Source of the DNA: a virus
Taxonomy: Duplodnaviria; Caudoviricetes
IMG/VR virus record: IMGVR_UViG_3300006217_000025
Coordinates: 1 to 64,000 of that record
DNA length: 64,000 nt
Strand: one strand, 5' to 3'
Shown here: in pieces, positions 3,001-64,000 of the stretch
Layout: every line of letters starts with the position of its first letter
How positions within the stretch are numbered: position 1 is the first letter of the stretch
Notes under the pieces: model-generated
The model's input: only the letters and a program-made list of their open reading frames with translations
The model's database searches: none
Told to the model about the DNA's origin: nothing
Translations under genes and position numbers: made by a program

Positions 3001-6000
3001 TAGCTATTAAGCTTTTTTCATATTTTTCTTGTGTTTCATCTATAAAGTTTGTATCTGTCAATGCATCTTTAGCAATTTTCTTTGCATCATCCCAAGATTT
3101 TATCATTGCATTGAATACGTTGACATTTCTTACTCCTGCCATTTGTTCAGCTATGTAGTTTTTTTGAGCATCTGTTAAAACGTCCCACTTAGCTGCTAAC
3201 TCGTCTAATGTTTTACTAAAATCTTGATATTCTCCATTTTGATTATATACACTAATTCCGATTGAACTTAGTGCTTTAGCAGCGTTGGAACGCTCTTCGT
3301 CTGTAACATTCTCGTCTGCTGTTTTTGAACGAGAGGTACGAGCCATTATGGTTTTCATGGCATTCGATATTTGGCTTCCATCACTTCTTGTAATTTCGGC
3401 TACTTTAGCTACAGAAGAAGCAAACTCTTCGAACTCCAAACCAGCCTCAGACGCATATAACCCAGCATTTTGTGTTCCTTCTGCTATAATCCCAATTCCA
3501 TTAGCAAAGTCAACAGCGATTTCACTACTTATTTTTTCGTAGGAATTTACAATTCTTCTTTCTTGCCCTTCTAATTCTGTAAACTGGTTTACAACCCCTT
3601 GAATTTGGTCTGCTGCGATTGTCGCATCAGATTGAGAAGCGTTTGCTAACATGATAGTAGGCTTAGCCTTATTTAAAATACTTTCCGCAGTTTCATTAGC
3701 GTTAGCATAAATAGCTGTTGCCTGTAAAACGTTCTGAGCGTTTGTGTGAAGCTCTTTTGCTACACCTATAGCATTGATGCCTAACTTAGTCAATTCACTG
3801 TTTGAAGTGCTCATAGTTTGATTTATAGTAGTTAATTGAGAGTTTAACTCTTTGACAAAGCTATATCCAGCTTTCATCTGGTTCCATGCTCTCATTACTA
3901 CTTCAATACCGGTAACGTATTGTGTTAAGTTTGCAATTTTCTTTCCAATACCGTTTGCCCATTGTTCAGTAGTAGAAAGATATCTTTTTTCGGCACTTTC
4001 AAAGTCTACTAATGCATATTTACCATCATTTGCGGCATCTTCAAGTTTTTGCATTTCAATGGTAAAGCTACGAATAGCATTTCCTTCTATTGTTTTAAAG
4101 CTACCTTTACCTGTTTTTTCATTAAATGAAAAGTCTTGGAGGTTTGAAAATTCTTTTTCGTAAAACTCTCTAATTGTGTCCGAATTAATTTCGTCTAATG
4201 TTTCGACTAAATCACGATTTCTATTACGTTTTGTTCTACCTTGACCTTGCTTAAATTCTGTACGGTACATAGAGGTATTAAGTTGATCCATTAGCCTAAT
4301 GGCTTCTTTAAGATCGTTTATATCTTTGTAATTGAAAGAAGGATTATCTTCCTTAAGCTTAGCAGTCAGGTTTAAATAGATTTTTTGTTGTTCAGCATAA
4401 ATCCTTTGAGCATCTAGATATTCCTTAAGTTCATCTCCATTCTTATCTATCATTTTAAATGGAGCTTTAATTTTGCTTGAAAATTCATCTGCTTTTATAT
4501 ATTTATATTTTTCTGCTTTTTTTACTAATTCTTCAAATGTTTTACCTAAATCCTCACTAGATTGAGTTGTAGTTTTAACAAAATCTTTTAAATTTTCTGA
4601 ACTTAATCCTTTGGCTAAAACATCTTGAATATTTTCAATTCTAATTTTAAGCTTTTGAACACTGCCATCAGCTTCAATAACGTCAGCAGTAAAACTAGCA
4701 ATTCCTGTATCTGTTATGTTAATCTTTCCAAGATTAATGCCATTTTCTTGTCCTAAACCTTCTTGTATTTTCTTAATTTGTTCCTGCATTTGAGATGCAT
4801 CAAGCTTAGGTTTAGTAGGGGAATTGCCTTTACTTTCGGCTTTTCGCAGTTCGGCATTTTGTTTTGTTAAATTGTCAATCTCTTTTTGTCTTTGTTTTGC
4901 TGTGTCTTGTAATTCTTTTATCTGAGATTTTAAACTGTTTGCCAATTCTTTAGAAGTGATATCTTTAACCGAAGTGAGCCCTAAGTTTTCAAGAGTTGTC
5001 TTAAGTTCATTTATTTTATCAATAAAATTTGCAATTACTTTTTCGGTCTGAACAAAGGAATCACTTACCTTAGATACAAATCCACCTAAATCAACATTAT
5101 TTAAGTTATTTACAGCTTCTTTTGTTTTATCTAGGCTTTTAATCTGTTTGTCAGTCAATGCTTTTGGCTTAGATTTGCTTTCTTCTTTTTCTCCGACTTT
5201 AATATTTTTTAAACTTTGAATTAAACTTTGCAATTTCTTTGCATCAAAGGTAATTGAAATAGGATTAATGCCAGATTCAATTGTTCTTTTAACTTTTGTA
5301 ATTTCTTCTTGAGTAACTTCTAGAGTAGGGGATAATGCCACTTTTCCGGAATTATCGTCGCTTATAAGTCCGATATCATCTTTAATTACATCATATTGTT
5401 TTTTGATATTAGAAAATTGCTTTGTTATGCTGTCAATAGGAATCTTAGTATAGGTTTTAAATATTTCTTCTATGCTTCGTGATTTATCTTCAATTTGTGC
5501 CAATAAATCTAGAGCAACAACTAGAGAGGCAGTATCCTCTTTATTTAAATTGTTTTTACCACTGCCTTTACTACTCAACTGTCGAACTTGTGAAATAAGT
5601 TCCATTTCATTTTTATCTTTTAGATTTTTATATGCACCAGTGATAGTATTAACTAAATCTGCTTTTCCATCAGTTTTTAATTTAATATTAACCGGTTTAT
5701 TCTTGATATTTTTTTGAATTTTAGATATGAACTTATCTAAATCGTCCGATCTTGGAGTAATTTGAATATCAGCAATCTTATGATTTGAGATTTTATAATA
5801 AAATTCTTCTAAATTGGAAGGGATAATTCTAATTTTTACTATTTCTTGCGATTCAAACGGTTCTTTGTCTTTTGAAATAGTTGTTTCTTTTTTTACAAAT
5901 CCTGTATTTACTTGCTTTTGGATAGCGGGGAAAATCGATTCAAGTTCTGCTTTCCTTTGTTTTAAGGTCTCCAAGCGTTCGTCTAATTCGTCTTGCAACT

Positions 6001-21680: not shown

Positions 21681-21863
21681 TTAAAAATACATTTTATTCG
21701 TATATACAATTTTTAATTTGCTTTTGTCAAAATGGCTAATTTTATGATTGTTTATAAATGTATAAAATTCCCCATTTTTAGACAATTCTTGAAATCCAAG
21801 TTTTTTTAATACTTGTCTACTATTATCATCTTTAGTTAAGATAAAATTGTTTGTATTATCCAT
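21681..21863 (-). CDS. Small conserved phage protein
   Basis: 60 aa, coupled to the portal stop codon. Confidence 0.6.
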   Translation of the reverse strand: MDNTNNFILTKDDNSRQVLKKLGFQELSKNGEFYTFINNHKISHFDKSKLKIVYTNKMYF

Positions 21864-23383
21864 TATTCATTTGCCTCCCGTTTATCTCTAGAAGCTTCAC
21901 CGGAATCAGACATATCATTGCCGGATTCTTCTGATGTAGGTCTTCCGACAACTAACTCATTACCATTAGATGTGCTCGATGTTGCTAGAGGAACAAACAA
22001 ACTTTGAAGATTCAGAGCTTGATTGAATTTTGCCATAGATATAGTTTCAAGTTCAGAGAAACCATTCAATGTATTTAATAGCATAGCCACAGGGGCACCA
22101 AAATTCATATCCTTGATAAGACTATCTTTATATTCTTTTTTTGTATATTTAGTTACTTCTAAAAATTTAACTTTAGCTGGATTTTTCAATTGATAGCTCA
22201 GCCATCTGTTTAACCAAGCTTCTGTTTGAGGTAATAATGAACTAATTGCATAGTCTTCATCACTTTTAATTGCAGCACTATATGCTGTTGTACCTTGAGG
22301 TGGACATAATGTTTGAACCCCTCCAGATGTAGTTAGTACAGCTTTTGTTGCATTTTCTATTTTGCTAACATCTTGTGCTTGATCATGATTAAATTCAATT
22401 GTTTCGATTTCCACAGGACTAACAATTTTCTCCGTATAGTCTGGTGCTTCAAATCTATTAGCATATTCGACCGTAGTGGTTGGGTCAACTGCAAAATCAT
22501 TGACTTCTTTACTGCCACTGATTAAAGGCATTCGGAAAACTAACAATTTATAAATTTGCATTTCATCTGCGATTGCGGTTATTTCGTTTAAATCCTCAAG
22601 ATTAATTAGACTATTAAATAAAGCAATGTAAGGTGGGAGAGGGGTTTCCCAGTCATCTATATTAACTTTCAGACACAAGCAGTTTTTGTCTGGCATAGGT
22701 TGCCATCTTCCTTTAACTGTATTTTTCTGATACTCTTTATACATAGAAGTAAATGGTTCTCCCCACATTTCAAGTTGCTCTTTTCTACGAGTAAAATATG
22801 CCATGTCCATATCAAAAGCCAAATCACCTGTTGGATATATAGCAGTTACTTTACAGTAATCTGGATCTAAGGGTAGAACAAAGAATCCGGTATCATCAGA
22901 ATATACACATCCATAAAATACGTCTTCTCGCCAACAAACAATATACGCTTTTAATAATTCTAATGGTAAATTCATTTTGTTAATCAATAAAGATGTTTCA
23001 TAAAATGAATTCAGCAAATCATCTGTTTTCGCTTCTTTTTTATAATTAGTATTTATTGGTATTATCGTTCTTAGATTCAAATCAATCATGTTAGCGTTAT
23101 AATGAATTATTCTTCGATATACTTGTGAACGATAGTACAAATATCTACTTAAGTTTCTTAAATTCACATAGTTTGAAAGAGGGTTTTTTAAGAATGTTCT
23201 AAGCTGTTCTTTGTTAAAGGTGCTAAACACTTTAGTGTTTGAGGAACTCGGATCAAGCATTTGTAAAGCTTCTTTAGAGCGTTCAAAATTTTCTAAGTTT
23301 GCTTTGTTTTTAGCGTACCATTCTCTTATTTCTGAAACGCTTGGTGAATTTGGAGTGCCAATCTTTTCTTCATTATTATCTAT
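21863..23383 (-). CDS. Portal protein; probable non-canonical ATA start at 23383
   Basis: Between terminase and protease; frame open 41 codons upstream of the first ATG (23260) with no ATG/GTG/TTG; GAAAGGAGGG RBS 8 nt before ATA. Confidence 0.8.
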   Translation of the reverse strand: MDNNEEKIGTPNSPSVSEIREWYAKNKANLENFERSKEALQMLDPSSSNTKVFSTFNKEQLRTFLKNPLSNYVNLRNLSRYLYYRSQVYRRIIHYNANMIDLNLRTIIPINTNYKKEAKTDDLLNSFYETSLLINKMNLPLELLKAYIVCWREDVFYGCVYSDDTGFFVLPLDPDYCKVTAIYPTGDLAFDMDMAYFTRRKEQLEMWGEPFTSMYKEYQKNTVKGRWQPMPDKNCLCLKVNIDDWETPLPPYIALFNSLINLEDLNEITAIADEMQIYKLLVFRMPLISGSKEVNDFAVDPTTTVEYANRFEAPDYTEKIVSPVEIETIEFNHDQAQDVSKIENATKAVLTTSGGVQTLCPPQGTTAYSAAIKSDEDYAISSLLPQTEAWLNRWLSYQLKNPAKVKFLEVTKYTKKEYKDSLIKDMNFGAPVAMLLNTLNGFSELETISMAKFNQALNLQSLFVPLATSSTSNGNELVVGRPTSEESGNDMSDSGEASRDKREANE

Positions 23384-23400
23384 AATATAACCCTCCTTTC

Positions 23401-25476
23401 TTAATTGAACTTATATTTTCGTGTTGCTTTCTTATTATTTGAATACAACAAGTCTATTAAACTGCTCGTTGTATTTTTTTTTTGTTTTCTACTTCGTAAA
23501 CTTTCTTCACGTCTTGTTTGATATAAGGCATATCCTAGCATTGCAGTAACATAGGCTTTATCATCATGAATTCTATTTCTTTTTTCTGGTGCAAGTTCAA
23601 AACTGTCTTTAGTTCCAGTTTTTTTAATACGAACCATATTGACTAATTCTTCTTTTAAAGAATCTATGTTCCCGAGTGCCGCTTCATCTTGAATATCCAA
23701 TCTAACATTTTGAGTATCTATAATATCCGATTTAGTAATTTCATTTTCAATAATTTGATTAATTTCTTCATCTGTTTTACCTTTATTCTTGTGCTTAGAT
23801 ATCAAATCCTTACGAATTTTGGCAACTTTTTTTTCATCTCTGTTTACAATGGTGAGATATCCTTTATTGTCATATGTAGCCGTAAATTTTAAATGATTTT
23901 CAGTAATCATTTGTATTAATGCCTCATACATATCAGCTTTATATTGTCCGGGATTTAATAGCTTTACTTTATCTATGGCTTCTGGAAACATTTTGGCTTC
24001 GTCTCCAGAATATTTTTTATCAATAAGACCTCTATGCAATTCTCCATTAGAATCAGTCCAATCAAATCTTAAGAAATCAGCAATAGCTAAAGCTTGCCCT
24101 CCAGAGCCAGCATCAATATAAACACCTAAAATATTGCTATAGTGTTCATCTCCCCCTTGATTATAATCCAATATAATTTCACGAAGTGCATTAATTTGAT
24201 TAGGTATATTCATAGGTTTTTTATCTTTTTTTAAATAATCAAACAAAGTAATGCAATTGACAATACGTGCTTCATACCCTTTGTTTTTTTCAAAATAAAC
24301 TTCCCCAACTAAAACAACAGAATTATCTGTCATACGAGCAGGGTCATAACAAATAAAAAACTTTTTTTCCCCAGTATCATTATAGAGTAGGGGACGTCGC
24401 ACTTCTTCATTCCTTGCAATCATACTCCTTCTAATAATTGCATCTTTTCCTGCGTCTGAAGTGAATTCACAATAATATTCTCTACGTGCCTTTTCTGGAT
24501 TAGTTTTTAATGCTGTATCTATTTTATCTTGAGTTAAAGCAGATTTCATTGGTTTTCCTTTTACTGTAGGGTTCATCACTAAGTCGCAATCAATATGTGC
24601 TACAAAGTAGTTTGGATCACCAATTATCATTTTTTTTGTAAATTCAACATATAATCTATAAAATTCTGTATCTGTGCTTGAGGCAGATGACACATAAATC
24701 AATTGATTCGGTATTTCTTTTGGCAGAGTAGCATAGTGGACATAATCCATATCAGAACCATCGTCGTTAACTCCAGTCTTAAATCCCTTTTCAACAGCAC
24801 AGAATGCTTCATATACTTTAATTAAGTCTGCTGGTAAAAATCCACACTCATCGAATATAACACAATCTGCTCGAGCTCCACGATTTTTATCTACTGATGA
24901 GTTCAAAGTCATAGTAAATGCACCATTAAACAAATTATAGGTAAACCCAGCAGGATTATGGCTAAAACCATCACCGCTAGCAGCATTGATTTCAACTTCA
25001 TTTTTAAATATTGATCCAGTGCTGTTTAATAAACTTGAAATTCTATCATTTGCTATGTCCTCTAATTTTTTAAAGGTGGTAGCAGATTGTTGACCACTAC
25101 CCGAAGCAATATAACAATTCCAAGGGTAACTAGAAAGCATCTGTTTCGACATAATAAATAATACAACTAAAAAAGACTTCCCATAGGCACGAGAAGCGAC
25201 CAATAAAACGTTCTGAGTATTCCACATACTCTGAATAATGTAGGACTGACTGTCAATCAATTGTATATTAAAAAAGTCCCTGATAAATCTAACAGGATTT
25301 TCTTGATAATATTTTCTATACTTTGCTATTCTTTTATACCCTTGTACTTTTCTTGAACTTAATGAAAATTCTTTATTAGGAGCATATAAATGTTTAACCC
25401 CAAGTATTTCTCTAACAAAATCAGCTCCATACACACATTGTTGGGCAATCCGGTCATCATAAAAATCCACTAACAT
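23401..25476 (-). CDS. terL: Terminase large subunit
   Basis: Walker A ASRAYGKS, Walker B VIFDE, RNase H-like nuclease YDPA...HDD. Confidence 0.9.
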   Translation of the reverse strand: MLVDFYDDRIAQQCVYGADFVREILGVKHLYAPNKEFSLSSRKVQGYKRIAKYRKYYQENPVRFIRDFFNIQLIDSQSYIIQSMWNTQNVLLVASRAYGKSFLVVLFIMSKQMLSSYPWNCYIASGSGQQSATTFKKLEDIANDRISSLLNSTGSIFKNEVEINAASGDGFSHNPAGFTYNLFNGAFTMTLNSSVDKNRGARADCVIFDECGFLPADLIKVYEAFCAVEKGFKTGVNDDGSDMDYVHYATLPKEIPNQLIYVSSASSTDTEFYRLYVEFTKKMIIGDPNYFVAHIDCDLVMNPTVKGKPMKSALTQDKIDTALKTNPEKARREYYCEFTSDAGKDAIIRRSMIARNEEVRRPLLYNDTGEKKFFICYDPARMTDNSVVLVGEVYFEKNKGYEARIVNCITLFDYLKKDKKPMNIPNQINALREIILDYNQGGDEHYSNILGVYIDAGSGGQALAIADFLRFDWTDSNGELHRGLIDKKYSGDEAKMFPEAIDKVKLLNPGQYKADMYEALIQMITENHLKFTATYDNKGYLTIVNRDEKKVAKIRKDLISKHKNKGKTDEEINQIIENEITKSDIIDTQNVRLDIQDEAALGNIDSLKEELVNMVRIKKTGTKDSFELAPEKRNRIHDDKAYVTAMLGYALYQTRREESLRSRKQKKNTTSSLIDLLYSNNKKATRKYKFN

Positions 25477-28901: not shown

Positions 28902-28975
28902 TGGTAGCAGCAACAAGAATTGAACTTGTATTATACGATTATTAGTCGCAAGTTTTACCATTAAACTATGCCACT
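28902..28975 (-). tRNA. tRNA-Ile(AAU)
   Basis: Full cloverleaf, 3' CCA; anticodon stem UGCGA/UCGUA, loop CU-AAU-AA. Confidence 0.85.
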
Positions 28976-29986: not shown

Positions 29987-30063
29987 TGGTTGCTAACGCC
30001 TTGGAGTTGAACCAAGTTTTCAAGGGGTATGAACCCTCGCAAGATACCGACCTTCCGCCAGCT
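29987..30063 (-). tRNA. Atypical tRNA(CAU) with initiator-like features
   Basis: Loop UU-CAU-AC, GGG/CCC at the base of the anticodon stem, 1:72 mismatch, short D loop CGGU, CCA. Confidence 0.6.
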
Positions 30064-30067
30064 ATAT

Positions 30068-30144
30068 TGGTGGACTCTGTAGGATTCGAACCTACAATCT
30101 TTCGGTTATGAGCCGACAGCTTTAACCAACTAAGCTAAGAGTCC
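30068..30144 (-). tRNA. tRNA(CAU), probably Ile2 (lysidine type)
   Basis: Canonical cloverleaf GGACUCU.../AGAGUCC-A-CCA, loop CU-CAU-AA; closely resembles Bacillota tRNA-Ile2. Confidence 0.85.
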
Positions 30145-56150: not shown

Positions 56151-57428
56151 GTGGATATTTTAATAAAAAAGATGTTTGAATATGAACGTTGGAAAGAGTT
56201 ACTTGAAATTGCTTCTGAAAAAGAGTTAGATAAGGATTTAATTATCAAATTTATGAAACCAGATGAACGAAAGAAATTGGCTTATATTATTGCTTCGGAT
56301 AGTTATACTATTGCTCCCCCACATATCGCTTTTATCCCAAAAGACGATGGCACTATGAGAGAAGTATATGTAAACGAAGATTTAGATAGGATAGTATTAA
56401 CTTTAATAAATAATGTTCTTTGCGAAATTTTTAAAAATAAAATTCATCCTAAATGTGTATCATATCAAAAAGGATTAGGGACACAAATGGTAGTTGAACA
56501 AATTTCAAGAGAAATTACTCAAATGGGTATTGATAATCCTCATATAGAGCGCTGTGGTTATAAAAGTGATTTTTCTAAGTATTTTGATAATGTGTCTTTA
56601 AAAGCTATTGACAGGGTATTTAATGAGTGTGAACGGGGACTAGGTTATGAGTATAATAAGCATCCCGTTTTTAATTTGTTGCGGAGATATTATCATCAGG
56701 ATTTATATTTTAATAAAGATGGGAAATTGGGCAATAGATATCAAGGGCTCAAACAAGGGTGTGCAGTGGCTAGTTTTCTAGCAAATGTCGTTTTGTATGA
56801 ATTAGATGAATTTATGTCAAACAAATATAGGATTTATTATAGATATAGTGATGATTTAGTTGCAATCGACAAAAATACTGATGATGTTATTGATGATATC
56901 AATCGAGTTATTTGTAAATATGGCGTTACATTGAATCCTAAAAAAGTAGAACCAATCTACAAAGATGAATGGTTTAAGTTTTTAGGATTCATGATCAAAG
57001 GTAGCCAAATCACTTTATCTAAAAAACGCATCAAGAATTTTGAAAAGGAAATTAGAAAAAGAAGCGTTGATAAACGAAAATGCTCTGAAAGTAAGGCTAG
57101 ATATCTAATCATGAAGTATTTATATGAAGGCGAACGGGCATGGGCAATGAGTTGTTTGAGTTGTATTAACGTTGAATCTGATATAGCTGAAATGAATAAG
57201 TTTATTATGGATTGCATTAAGGCATGTAAAACCGGAAAGAAAAGAATAGGGGGACTAGGAGTTGCTTATAATCTACCTGATAAAACAATTATAAGAGGCA
57301 AGGGGAAGCATGTTACCTCAAATAAGGTTAACAATGGGTATATTGAAAGATATTTGAGTGTACAGTGTCTTAGAAAAGATTTAAAGTACAATAGAGACTT
57401 ATTCGATATTGTACTTAAAGGACTATAA
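56151..57428 (+). CDS. Stand-alone phage reverse transcriptase (not DGR, intron or classical retron type)
   Basis: IPKDDGTMR (RT1), DRIV (RT2), YKSDFSKYFD (RT3), GLKQGCAVASFLAN (RT4), YYRYSDD (RT5), LNPKK (RT6), FKFLGF (RT7); likely GTG start at 56151 (track start 56130). Confidence 0.93.
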   Translation: MDILIKKMFEYERWKELLEIASEKELDKDLIIKFMKPDERKKLAYIIASDSYTIAPPHIAFIPKDDGTMREVYVNEDLDRIVLTLINNVLCEIFKNKIHPKCVSYQKGLGTQMVVEQISREITQMGIDNPHIERCGYKSDFSKYFDNVSLKAIDRVFNECERGLGYEYNKHPVFNLLRRYYHQDLYFNKDGKLGNRYQGLKQGCAVASFLANVVLYELDEFMSNKYRIYYRYSDDLVAIDKNTDDVIDDINRVICKYGVTLNPKKVEPIYKDEWFKFLGFMIKGSQITLSKKRIKNFEKEIRKRSVDKRKCSESKARYLIMKYLYEGERAWAMSCLSCINVESDIAEMNKFIMDCIKACKTGKKRIGGLGVAYNLPDKTIIRGKGKHVTSNKVNNGYIERYLSVQCLRKDLKYNRDLFDIVLKGL

Positions 57429-61512: not shown

Positions 61513-61794
61513 GTGAATAGTGCAGAATTTAAACATTTCAAACTTCATGCAGACAGTACGCTAAAAAGCATGACAAAAGATGAATTGGTTAGTTATATTC
61601 ATATGTTATATCACAATTGGGGTGTTGTTGATGAGAGATTGTGTAATGGTATTGATTATAGTCGCAAACTTGATAAAGCACTAGATAAAGCGTGTGAAGA
61701 ATTAGTAAGGGCTTATCCATGCGGTGTCAATAGGTGTAATACTAATTGTCATAAAGAAAGTTGGGAAGAGTGGTTGATGAAAAATGACTATTGA
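61513..61794 (+). CDS. Hypothetical protein
   Basis: ORF track. Confidence 0.65.
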   Translation: MNSAEFKHFKLHADSTLKSMTKDELVSYIHMLYHNWGVVDERLCNGIDYSRKLDKALDKACEELVRAYPCGVNRCNTNCHKESWEEWLMKNDY

Positions 61795-62710
61795 TGTGCT
61801 TGATAACGAGCTAATTCTGTTTGATCGATTAAATGTCATTAGAGATGTTGTTGAAAAATATAGTGAAGACAAATTCTATATCTCTTTCAGCGGGGGCAAG
61901 GACAGTACGGTACTTCATTATTTATTTGATGAAGCATTGCCAAACAATACAATACCTAGAGTATATTGTGATACGGGTATTGAGTACAACGATATAAAAG
62001 AATTTGTTTATGAACTGTCTAAAAATGATGATAGGTTCATCATTTTGAAGCCTAGTCAGAATGTGAAAGCCATGCTTGAAAAACATGGTTATCCATTCAA
62101 AAGTAAAGAACATAGCCATATTTTAGCGGTCTACCAAAATAGTGGTAAAACCAAAACGGTGGATAAATATTTATCAGGAATAAGGATAAAGAACGGAAAA
62201 GAAACTGAAACCTCGTTTAAGTGTCCTAAAATTCTTGCTTATCAATTTAACCAGGATTTCAAAATTAAAGTTAGCGATAAGTGTTGTAAGAGATTTAAAA
62301 AAGAGCCATTTAAAAGCTATGAAAAGCAGAGTGGCAGAAACATCTATATAACAGGAATGCGGAAATCAGAGGGCGGATATAGAAACAACATAAATTGCAT
62401 CGTTTATGACAATGACAAGCAAGTTAAAAAATTCCACCCTTTATCAAACGTTAATGACGAATGGGAAGATTGGTACATTCAAAAAAGAGGCATACAACTT
62501 TGCAAGCTGTATTATCCACCGTTCAATTTTAAAAGAACGGGGTGCAAGGGCTGTCCGTTTTCATTAAACCTACAAGAACAATTAGAAGTAATGGCAAGGT
62601 TATTACCGAATGAAAGAAAACAATGCGAAATGATATGGAAACCGATTTATACGGAGTACAGAAGACTTGGCTATAGACTTGCTGAAAATGAGCAAATAAA
62701 AATTTTTTAG
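61784..62710 (+). CDS. PAPS reductase-family (adenine nucleotide alpha hydrolase) protein
   Basis: ISFSGGKDSTVL PP-loop, CDTGIEY, SDKCC, GMRKSEG, RTGCKGCPF. Confidence 0.85.
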   Translation: MTIDVLDNELILFDRLNVIRDVVEKYSEDKFYISFSGGKDSTVLHYLFDEALPNNTIPRVYCDTGIEYNDIKEFVYELSKNDDRFIILKPSQNVKAMLEKHGYPFKSKEHSHILAVYQNSGKTKTVDKYLSGIRIKNGKETETSFKCPKILAYQFNQDFKIKVSDKCCKRFKKEPFKSYEKQSGRNIYITGMRKSEGGYRNNINCIVYDNDKQVKKFHPLSNVNDEWEDWYIQKRGIQLCKLYYPPFNFKRTGCKGCPFSLNLQEQLEVMARLLPNERKQCEMIWKPIYTEYRRLGYRLAENEQIKIF

Positions 62711-62723
62711 AAAGGAACTAGAG

Positions 62724-63353
62724 ATGAAAATACACAATAAAAAATTGATTCAGCCTTATTTTGATGATGTTTGGAACGGAAATAAAACATTTGAGATAAG
62801 GAAAAACGACTGTGATTATCAAATTGGGGATTTTCTAATTCTTCATGAATTGACAAATGAAACAATACAAATAGAAGGTAAAAAATTATACAGAATTAAG
62901 GCTTTGATTGATTTTGGTGATGTAAAAGCTGGAGATTTAGGCGGTTTTATAGAAAAAGAAAGTAATTTAAGCCATCTTGGTAGCGCTTGGATATATGATG
63001 ATGCTAAGGTGTATGGCAACGCTGAGGTGTATGGTAACGCTTGGATATATGATGACGCTGAGGTGTGTGGTAACGCTAGGGTGTGTGATGACGCTATGGT
63101 GTGTGGTAACGCTATGGTGTGTGATGATGGTGATTATGCATGTGTTAAAGGTTTTGGAACGGAATATAGAAACACCACGTTTTATAAACAGAAAAATGGA
63201 AGTGTTGGTGTGAATTGTGGGTGTTTCACTGGCACATTAGGGGAGTTTAGAAATCAGGTTAAAAAAACAAGAAAAGGGAAAATTGAAAAAGAATATTTGA
63301 TGATAGCTGATTTAATAGAATATCATTTTGCAGAAGAAGGAGAGGGATTATAA
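62724..63353 (+). CDS. Chimeric protein: DUF3850/ASCH N-terminus fused to a hexapeptide-repeat phage protein
   Basis: YFDDVWNGNKTFEIRKNDCDYQIGD then ELTNETIQ...LYRIKAL...GDLGGFIEKESNL and A-x-V-x-G-N repeats. Confidence 0.75.
   Translation: MKIHNKKLIQPYFDDVWNGNKTFEIRKNDCDYQIGDFLILHELTNETIQIEGKKLYRIKALIDFGDVKAGDLGGFIEKESNLSHLGSAWIYDDAKVYGNAEVYGNAWIYDDAEVCGNARVCDDAMVCGNAMVCDDGDYACVKGFGTEYRNTTFYKQKNGSVGVNCGCFTGTLGEFRNQVKKTRKGKIEKEYLMIADLIEYHFAEEGEGL
62985..63128 (+). repeat. Eight 18-nt coding tandem repeats (hexapeptides)
   Basis: Units like GCTGAGGTGTATGGTAAC / GCTATGGTGTGTGATGAT. Confidence 0.9.
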
Positions 63354-63634
63354 TAACAAAGGAAGAGTTAGAACAATACGTGCCGTTGAAGAAATGGAGA
63401 ACAGAGGCTATTAGAAATAATAGAAAAGAGGAAATTGCTATATTGGAAGAAAGAATGAAAGCCATAGAAAAGGCGATTTCAACAACATCATCTAATGTAG
63501 ATGTTTATAGAGCGCTACATTACAGGTACATATTAGGGATGGAGTTAAAGGCGATTGCAAAAAAAACAAACTTCTCTATTGCGACAGTTAGCAGAAATTT
63601 GAAAAAAGGTTTAAAGATGATAAACCATGCGTAA
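63350..63634 (+). CDS. ArpU/sigma-region-4-like HTH regulator; probable ATA start overlapping the upstream TAA
   Basis: GAAGGAGAGG RBS then ATA ATA ACA AAG GAA GAG TTA (xITKEELEQY); C-terminal HTH YRYILGMELKAIAKKTNFSIATVSR. Confidence 0.65.
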   Translation: MITKEELEQYVPLKKWRTEAIRNNRKEEIAILEERMKAIEKAISTTSSNVDVYRALHYRYILGMELKAIAKKTNFSIATVSRNLKKGLKMINHA

Positions 63635-63720
63635 CGTTTGCATGGTATCATATAGGTGCAGTCATGGAATTGCACCTCTTTCTTTTTAATTTTATAAGGT
63701 GGATAAAATCCACCGAATAA

Positions 63721-63796
63721 GGCAGGGTGGAGCAGAAGGAAGCTTATCAGTCTTATTAGCTGAGGGTCGCAGGTTCAAGTCCTGCCCCTGCAACCA
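63721..63796 (+). tRNA. Initiator (fMet)-type tRNA body with UAU anticodon
   Basis: G1.A72 mismatch, G2-C71, C3-G70, A11-U24, A73, T arm GCAGG-UUCAAGU-CCUGC as in Bacillota tRNA-fMet; anticodon loop CU-UAU-UA. Confidence 0.75.
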
Positions 63797-63847
63797 TTTA
63801 ATTTACCATGCTTCATAGCATGGATTTTTTTGAAAGGAATTAAAGAA

Positions 63848-63979
63848 ATGATAGAAAAAATGTTAGCGATCAAAAGGGAAATATATACAACGGATTCATG
63901 GAAGCGTAGAAATGATTTACAGAAGCATTTAGATAGCTTAGAAAAAGAATGGTTTAAAAACAAGAAGGTGATAAAATAG
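63848..63979 (+). CDS. Small hypothetical protein (43 aa)
   Basis: GAAAGGA RBS, ATG; MIEKMLAIKREI...SWKRRNDLQKHL. Confidence 0.6.
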   Translation: MIEKMLAIKREIYTTDSWKRRNDLQKHLDSLEKEWFKNKKVIK

Positions 63980-64000
63980 CTAGACCAAAAAAAGAAATTG
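63976..64000 (+). CDS. 5' end of a gene starting at ATA (MARPKKEI...), truncated by the window edge
   Basis: AAGAAGGTGA RBS; ATA overlaps the upstream TAG (ATAG); ARPKKEI is a typical phage protein N-terminus. Confidence 0.5.

Follow-up and report, generated by a model that had tools for sequence, protein, structure and literature searches.

A phage tRNA of initiator type with anticodon UAU, and late genes that appear to start with AUA

In bacteria and their viruses, the reading of AUG, GUG and UUG starts by a single initiator transfer RNA (tRNA) with anticodon CAU is, to our knowledge, treated as universal. The anticodon can be changed in the laboratory, and Pallanck and Schulman reportedly found in 1991 that an anticodon-switched tRNAfMet initiates with the amino acid of its new anticodon. 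The native initiator reads AUA at only 0.1-1% of AUG (PMC11744186), and in mitochondria a tRNA-Met with f5CAU reportedly reads AUA both at starts and, as Met, inside genes (PMC2655697). In the literature we found only engineered anticodon-mutant initiators and this mitochondrial AUA decoding, and no natural phage or bacterial initiator for a codon outside the AUG family. Here we describe a candidate in a tailed phage (Caudoviricetes), on a stretch of 64,000 nucleotides (nt), hereafter the window, which is bases 1-64000 of the 78,346-bp IMG/VR virus record IMGVR_UViG_3300006217_000025; the rest of the contig was read too and is cited in the same numbering. The original prediction for this locus proposed that the phage encodes an alternative initiator that licenses AUA-started genes (ATA in the DNA). 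We consider it likely that the UAU tRNA is a working initiator for AUA, a proposal supported by the build of the tRNA, the starts of homologous genes, the co-occurrence of tRNA and ATA starts in relatives, and a parallel system in which anticodon CCU tracks AGG starts.

The element at the centre of this analysis is:

63721-63796, plus strand: initiator-type tRNA, anticodon UAU, encoded CCA end, 76 nt (ARAGORN and Rfam)

It scores 48.6 bits against the Rfam tRNA model (cut-off 29), its minimum-free-energy fold is the cloverleaf with base 1 unpaired, and ARAGORN labels it tRNA-Ile, anticodon TAT. The acceptor stem reads G1xA72, G2:C71, C3:G70, A4:U69, G5:C68, G6:C67 and G7:C66, with discriminator A73; the D stem reads G10.U25, A11:U24, G12:C23 and C13:G22, with G18 and G19 present; the anticodon stem reads U27:A43, C28:G42, A29:U41, G30:C40 and U31.G39, under a loop CUUAUUA that places U at position 37; and the T loop is UUCAAGU. 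Direct reading thus agrees on every item with the tRNA first described (1:72 mismatch, G2-C71, C3-G70, A11-U24, A73, anticodon UAU). A 1:72 mismatch is a formylation determinant and disfavours binding of elongation factor EF-Tu, and the tRNA has no Watson-Crick pair at this position. G2:C71, C3:G70 and A73 are present, and invariant in the family alignment described below, with A:U and not G:C at 4:69. Position 11:24 is purine-pyrimidine, as in initiators, so that neither elongator hallmark (a paired 1:72, and pyrimidine 11 with purine 24) is found; the CAU of tRNA-fMet is replaced by UAU. By every sequence criterion tested except a full run of three G:C pairs in the anticodon stem, this is a tRNA of initiator type.

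Comparison with other tRNAs points the same way. A search of a whole genome of the Firmicute Paenibacillus returned its three tRNA-fMet genes as the sole full-length matches, at 78% identity over bases 2-76. In a panel of 37 tRNAs (29 Paenibacillus genes and the eight other tRNAs of the contig), global identity to tRNA-fMet was 77%, and no other member exceeded 66%. The combination of a genuine 1x72 mismatch and A11:U24 occurred only in the UAU tRNA and the three Paenibacillus initiator copies, all panel elongators having C:G or U:A at 11:24; a few rows of this second comparison lacking an encoded CCA were mis-parsed at 72/73 and ignored. A blastn comparison with E. coli genomes was uninformative, giving a single odd tRNA-Met match.

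The second line of evidence comes from gene starts. About ten virion and packaging genes appear to start with ATA where relatives have canonical starts, mostly ATG; most of them lie past the window. The candidates are:

63976-64000, plus strand: 5' end of the terminase small subunit gene (terS), ATA start 63976; the gene ends at 64353, past the window (PHROG terminase small subunit)
64350, plus strand: terL
65671, plus strand: portal
69471, plus strand: major capsid
71261, plus strand: neck
72063, plus strand: tail tube
73509, plus strand: tape measure
76421, plus strand: tail protein
77467, plus strand: possibly a further ATA start
21863-23383, minus strand: portal of an SPbeta-like module, ATA start 23383 (PHROG portal family, 1.8e-90)

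The predicted start of terS was borne out: ATA at 63976-63978 overlaps an upstream TAG (ATAG), is preceded by GAAGGTGAT and is followed by GCT AGA CCA AAA AAA GAA ATT. For terS, terL, the portal, the capsid and the tail protein, homologues have canonical codons at the position aligned with the ATA. Of the 26 terS homologues that could be read, 22 have ATG there and begin MARPRKEI or MGRPRKEI, and four start a few codons upstream; these terS relatives have no other late gene in common with this phage. The aligned codon is ATG in 23 homologues of terL and GTG in 15, ATG in 51 homologues of the portal at 65671, ATG in 79 of 80 homologues of the major capsid gene (MALTLAEAKVGM against (ATA)AITLEEAKVGM in this phage), and ATG in seven of nine relatives of the tail protein. 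For the neck protein, homologue N-termini (e.g. MASNVKVEL) fit only the ATA-started form, the called ATG form being 16 residues short. The tape measure carries the motif DGSLVFDTK two codons past its start, and the aligned start is TTG in one relative (L095) and AGG in another (L059). The ATA of the tail tube gene lies four codons upstream of the start position of relatives; in 34 of 46 related records this gene has AAAGGAG, 8 nt and then ATA at its own start, and a sibling has ATG at the same base. The candidate at 77467 is ambiguous, as an ATG lies two codons upstream but only one base past the Shine-Dalgarno (SD) sequence.

The portal gene at 23383 has AAAGGAGGG 8 nt upstream of its ATA. 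Its homologues are 505-520 amino acids long and their N-termini fit only the ATA start; the first ATG, 41 codons in, would drop a block with nearly invariant residues. Gene calls would accordingly be too short, by 41 residues for this portal, 16 for the neck protein and 10 for a small regulator considered below. At four of the ATA starts the codon overlaps the upstream stop, an arrangement that resembles translational coupling.

We also counted candidate starts across the genome, demanding an SD sequence 4-11 nt upstream, at least 80 open codons after the site, and, in frame, an absence of canonical starts both from the upstream stop to the site and over the eight codons after it. This gave 12 ATA sites in nine genes, against two to four sites for each of ten control codons, an excess over chance. 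By the same scan, ATA was no commoner than the control codons in 892 kb of capsid-related phages. The sites are unevenly distributed: none of the 43 starts in the early region (41-63 kb) is ATA, all being canonical, and of the roughly 20 genes in the late block from 63.3 kb, 9-10 start with ATA (Fisher p about 1e-6 to 7e-6 against the early region). ATA makes up 25-28% of the Ile codons in the genome, and early genes, late block and other module use it internally to the same extent; therefore a particular need of the late genes for decoding AUA in elongation is not apparent.

The ATA codons are not sequencing errors, because independent assemblies all retain them. In the near-identical contigs L002 and L003 (99.7-99.9%) and the variants L151 (95-97%) and L150 (93%), which come from other assemblies, the tRNA is unchanged and every ATA is retained with its SD sequence. 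Over ten ATA sites there are two changes in 370 nt, against an overall divergence of 3-5%. Five Logan assemblies retain the portal ATA at 23383.

Further support comes from relatives. The UAU tRNA family was reached through the tail tube gene; patterns that demand GGAGCAG in the D arm miss it. The exact anticodon-arm 13-mer occurs in 22 of the 34 records with an ATA-started tail tube gene and in none of the seven with an ATG-started one, and three of the four near-complete records that are negative for the 13-mer carry the same tRNA with a compensatory G29:C41. Across relatives the tRNA goes together with ATA starts: a UAU tRNA of this design is found in 17 of the 18 ATA-start records that are at least 90% complete and in none of the seven ATG-start records. 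Two relatives (G007 and G010) have ten and six ATA-start candidates against 0-2 for most control codons, and in both the tRNA follows a small regulator-like open reading frame and precedes the ATA-started late genes.

The UAU tRNAs of this family (G007, G009, G010, G011, G031, G038 and G043) share the 1x72 mismatch, A11:U24, G30:C40, U31.G39 and the loop CUUAUUA and lie upstream of late genes with ATA starts, a pattern that the tRNA at 63721-63796 fits. We aligned six phage UAU tRNAs with one real tRNA-fMet. Position 1:72 was paired in none of the seven, while the other stem cells were 95-100% paired (36-53% in slid controls); compensatory changes occurred at eight pairs, and the covariation score was reached by none of 500 shuffles. 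A11:U24 and G30:C40 are invariant in this alignment, and each of the six UAU tRNAs has U31.G39 and the loop CUUAUUA. The G007/G009-type UAU tRNAs (L231, L234, L242 and L243; 1501-1576) have a bulged T-stem base and the T loop UGCAAAU in place of UUCAAAU; two of this type were missed by ARAGORN and score 48-49 bits with Rfam. At another locus (L004), the tRNA at the same spot upstream of terS proved to be an unrelated Gly(CCC) tRNA. Initiator tRNAs with UAU but of another kind, canonical-looking with a full three-G:C stem and A37, are found sporadically among bacterial and metagenome sequences, in an Arsenophonus endosymbiont (L121), a Collinsella metagenome-assembled genome (L122), two further loci (L118 and L119) and metagenome loci (L142-L149 and L152); the UAU copy of L122 lies 1.9 kb from a near-identical CAU copy.

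A second pairing of anticodon and start codon was found among the capsid relatives, many of which have a tRNA gene some 650 nt before the capsid gene. In L059, L046 and 17 further loci there is an initiator-like tRNA with anticodon CCU, C1xA72 or G1xA72 and U37 (near 5277-5348 of the locus). SD-led AGG-start candidates number 2.31 per 10 kb in loci with a CCU tRNA against 0.12-0.45 in the others (5-20 fold), ATA starts are not enriched there, and the tape-measure gene of these relatives has AGG at the codon aligned with the ATA of this phage. It is difficult to account for such a joint change of anticodon and private start codon if the tRNA does not read the start codon. Other capsid relatives (L038-L040, L042, L047-L049 and L053) have initiator-like tRNAs with CAU at about the same distance from the capsid gene, together with ATG starts, and may represent the ancestral state of the re-assigned versions. 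No tRNA remnant was found upstream of the capsid gene of this phage, where relatives keep theirs.

The tRNA heads the late block, between a regulator gene and terS, with a hairpin on each side. The neighbouring features are:

63350-63634, plus strand: small regulator with a sigma-70 region 4-like helix-turn-helix, probable ATA start 63350
63654-63687, plus strand: terminator-like hairpin and T run, between the regulator gene and the tRNA
63806-63830, plus strand: terminator-like hairpin and T7 run, immediately 3' of the tRNA
63848-63979, plus strand: small open reading frame of 43 amino acids with an ATG start, whose TAG stop overlaps the terS ATA

The ribosome-binding site and stop overlap (ATAA) predicted for the regulator are present: AAGGAG lies 7 nt upstream of ATA 63350-63352, which overlaps an upstream TAA. 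No ATG, GTG or TTG occurs in the regulator frame between the upstream stop at 63308 and a GTG at 63380. Searches of two protein libraries (a word index and full HMMER) returned no homologue other than the protein itself, and the start was judged from the substitution pattern because there was nothing to align. Within the gene, the variants L150 and L151 carry 18 differences from the window, and their substitutions at 63373, 63376 and 63379 are all at third positions and all synonymous in the ATA frame; therefore the stretch upstream of the first canonical start is translated. The regulator probably starts at ATA 63350, and ATT 63347 or ATA 63353 may be alternative starts. It matches Pfam Sigma70_r4_2 at 6.9e-5, below the Pfam cut-off, and PHROG transcriptional regulator, Q-like and sigma families at 1.6e-8 to 2e-4 (Q-like, 1.4e-6). 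In the 800-nt region around the tRNA there are three terminator-like sites, against 0.3 expected from shuffles. The order of regulator, terminator, tRNA, terminator and late genes resembles read-through of the lambda-Q type, a likeness that we offer as speculation. TTGCAC-17-TATAAG upstream of the tRNA is a weak promoter candidate picked out by eye and is not counted as evidence.

We propose that the UAU tRNA descended from a bacterial or phage-borne tRNA-fMet by a change of anticodon from CAU to UAU. It would be expressed, charged by a host synthetase, formylated by way of the 1x72 mismatch, G2:C71 and C3:G70, and accepted in the ribosomal P site by virtue of G30:C40. Isoleucine is the most likely amino acid, because isoleucyl-tRNA synthetase (IleRS) reads A35 and U36 and methionyl-tRNA synthetase needs C34. 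Strong SD sequences on the late mRNAs would place AUA in the P site, where UAU would pair with it perfectly and so satisfy the codon-anticodon check policed by initiation factor IF3. ATA would thereby become an efficient start for terS, terL, the portal, capsid, neck, tail tube, tape measure and tail proteins and one portal of the neighbouring module, and probably for the late regulator. A major capsid gene with ATA is hard to reconcile with the 0.1-1% efficiency of the native initiator unless a matching initiator is present. Late-gene translation would then depend on the UAU tRNA, which would act as a late-specific gate or a private initiation channel; a gating ('switch') role is a plausible inference. 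The broader proposal is one that we favour by a modest margin over its negation: that gut Firmicute phages run a natural orthogonal initiation system, in which a re-assigned phage initiator (UAU here, CCU in relatives) with a special anticodon arm (U31.G39 and U37) reads a private start codon of little use to host ribosomes alone, gates essential late genes and gives proteins that start with a residue other than methionine, probably formyl-isoleucine.

Several observations weigh against this proposal. Not every late gene can need the tRNA, since about half keep ATG. The other module holds the portal at 23383, whose link to the UAU tRNA would be conjectural. One relative, G008 (CheckV 100%, linear), has five ATA-start candidates and no such tRNA by Rfam or by an anticodon-arm pattern with up to two mismatches; its candidates (L235-L237) include 33258, 35787, 37255 and 39847, it has only the late region in common with the relatives, and it is either an incomplete record or a real exception. 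Two other viral contigs, G004 and G005, carry UAU initiator-like tRNAs of other sequence without enrichment of ATA starts in the SD-based scan, which is blind in G005 because few starts there are SD-led. In the stretch from the upstream terminator to the tRNA, no sigma-70-type promoter was recognised.

The anticodon arm raises further points of the same kind, two of which the original prediction had flagged as caveats. The IleRS identity set of E. coli comprises A35, U36, t6A37, A38, A73, C4:G69, U12:A23 and C29:G41, with t6A37 among the determinants. The UAU tRNA has A35, U36, A38 and A73 and differs in U37, A4:U69, G12:C23 and A29:U41, although the rules of the host's IleRS may differ. Its U37 is, as cautioned, unusual for any tRNA and rules out t6A37, so the charged amino acid is not certain. 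The full run of three G:C pairs at 29:41, 30:40 and 31:39 is lacking, since 29:41 is A:U and 31:39 is U.G; as had been noted, the middle pair alone is kept, and the flanking pairs add fitness in E. coli (PMC5389676). This caveat is softened because the kept pair, G30:C40, is the essential one in E. coli, where it (in essence G30) is able to suffice (Shetty et al. 2017, PMC5389676).

Of the alternatives, the one that survives best is an ordinary elongator tRNA-Ile(UAU) that serves AUA codons in an AT-rich phage, and in which the host tRNA-fMet reads the ATA starts weakly, initiation there being deliberately low-level or coupled. Such elongators exist in some bacteria and phages, and the ARAGORN label, the share of ATA among Ile codons (25-28%) and the four overlaps with upstream stops would all suit this explanation. 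However, no panel elongator has the 1x72 mismatch or A11:U24, 1:72 is never paired in the family, and the body of the tRNA matches tRNA-fMet at 77% and nothing else above 66%. Late genes do not differ from early genes or the other module in their internal use of ATA; the most abundant product, the major capsid protein, would have to initiate at 0.1-1% efficiency; and the tracking of AGG starts by CCU tRNAs would be left unexplained. We therefore regard an elongator role as improbable.

An even smaller chance attaches to a role in counter-defence, in which an initiator-like RNA would resist or soak up host nucleases that cut tRNA-fMet, the match to ATA being secondary or coincidental. Evasion of anticodon nucleases has been proposed for phage tRNAs whose anticodon loops are altered (PMC10264068), and U37 and U31.G39 are unusual and strictly conserved. 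UAU, however, cannot stand in for tRNA-fMet at AUG with full pairing, and neither the tight association with ATA starts (17 of 18 records against 0 of 7) nor a match between anticodon and start codon in two separate systems (UAU/ATA and CCU/AGG) is expected of a decoy.

Scarcely credible is a decaying tRNA-fMet copy or attachment-site relic, with ATA as the degraded or mis-called starts of genes being lost: tRNA genes are common integration sites of phages, and bacterial genomes sporadically contain canonical initiators altered only from CAU to UAU (e.g. the Arsenophonus endosymbiont), but the tRNA gene is complete, folds as a cloverleaf, shows compensatory changes across its family and is unchanged in variants whose neighbouring gene differs at 18 sites, and the genes that start with ATA are intact, essential to the virion and preceded by conserved SD sequences. 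A dedicated AUA initiator thus remains our preferred reading of the locus.

The contig as a whole has 31% G+C and is recorded as linear and about 50% complete (CheckV estimate). It carries two full sets of virion genes:

1-38900, minus strand: SPbeta-like set, with terL (23404-25476), portal (21866-23383), YonG/YonD/YonB-type proteins and a 2283-amino-acid tape measure (Yon-family Pfams)
63900-78346, plus strand: siphovirus-like set, with terS, terL, portal, capsid and tape measure

Independent assemblies that contain a gene located at 41.4 kb break at about 38.7-41.2 kb, so the contig may be two adjacent prophages or a chimera. ARAGORN found nine tRNA genes, of which eight are clustered at 28.9-30.7 kb on the minus strand and one, at 63721-63796 on the plus strand, is solitary. 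The cluster includes a tRNA with the Ile anticodon AAU (28902-28975, minus strand), A34 in an Ile anticodon being unusual for bacteria and phages, and an odd CAU call (29992-30066, minus strand) that lacks CCA, has the loop UUCAUAC on an anticodon stem with three G:C pairs, and adjoins a regular CAU tRNA at 30068-30144. The early region encodes a reverse transcriptase (56172-57425, plus strand; Pfam RVT_1, 1.5e-18), and a PAPS-reductase-domain protein (61784-62707, plus strand) lies directly upstream of the late block.

If the proposal is true, it describes a novel type of change in the genetic code, one that acts on gene starts and not on stops, and explains why essential phage genes are cut short or missed by gene finders. 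It would also reveal a new means by which phages time their late proteins or shield them from interference by the host or by competitors, and would offer orthogonal pairs of initiator and start codon ready for synthetic biology. Which initiator features Firmicutes require becomes testable, namely a single G30:C40, U37 and G1xA72.

Among known systems, bacterial tRNA-fMet (Paenibacillus sp. CN-4; E. coli metZWV/metY) is the closest in build, sharing 77-78% identity, the 1x72 mismatch, G2:C71, C3:G70, A11:U24, A73, G30:C40, a T loop UUCAAxU and the D arm GAGC/GCU. The phage tRNA departs from it in having UAU and not CAU, G1xA72 and not C1xA72, A:U at 4:69, U37, and A:U at 29:41 and U.G at 31:39 instead of G:C, and in being phage-encoded and matched by ATA starts in the phage's own genes. 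With elongator tRNA-Ile(UAU) it shares the anticodon and A73, but it lacks two features of elongators, the 1:72 pair and the pairing of pyrimidine 11 with purine 24. Borges and colleagues are said to have described in 2022 (Nat Microbiol) phage suppressor tRNAs that recode stop codons, with the recoded codons concentrated in late genes. The likeness is that a phage-borne tRNA alters the reading of one codon and that late or structural genes are affected, suggesting a timing gate; there, however, elongation and termination at stop codons are concerned, whereas initiation at a sense codon is proposed here. In engineered initiators (the amber tRNAfMet(CUA), i-tRNA(AAC) and the sets of PMC11744186) a changed anticodon likewise moves initiation to the complementary non-AUG codon, and the amino acid follows the synthetase that reads the anticodon; these are laboratory constructs, whereas the phage tRNA is natural, conserved under selection and apparently paired with about ten essential genes. 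Mitochondria also use AUA as a regular start codon, but a single tRNA-Met with a modified C34 reportedly serves both initiation and elongation there and AUA means Met throughout (PMC2655697). The phage, by comparison, would have a separate, dedicated initiator with an encoded U34, while its internal AUA codons are presumably read as Ile.

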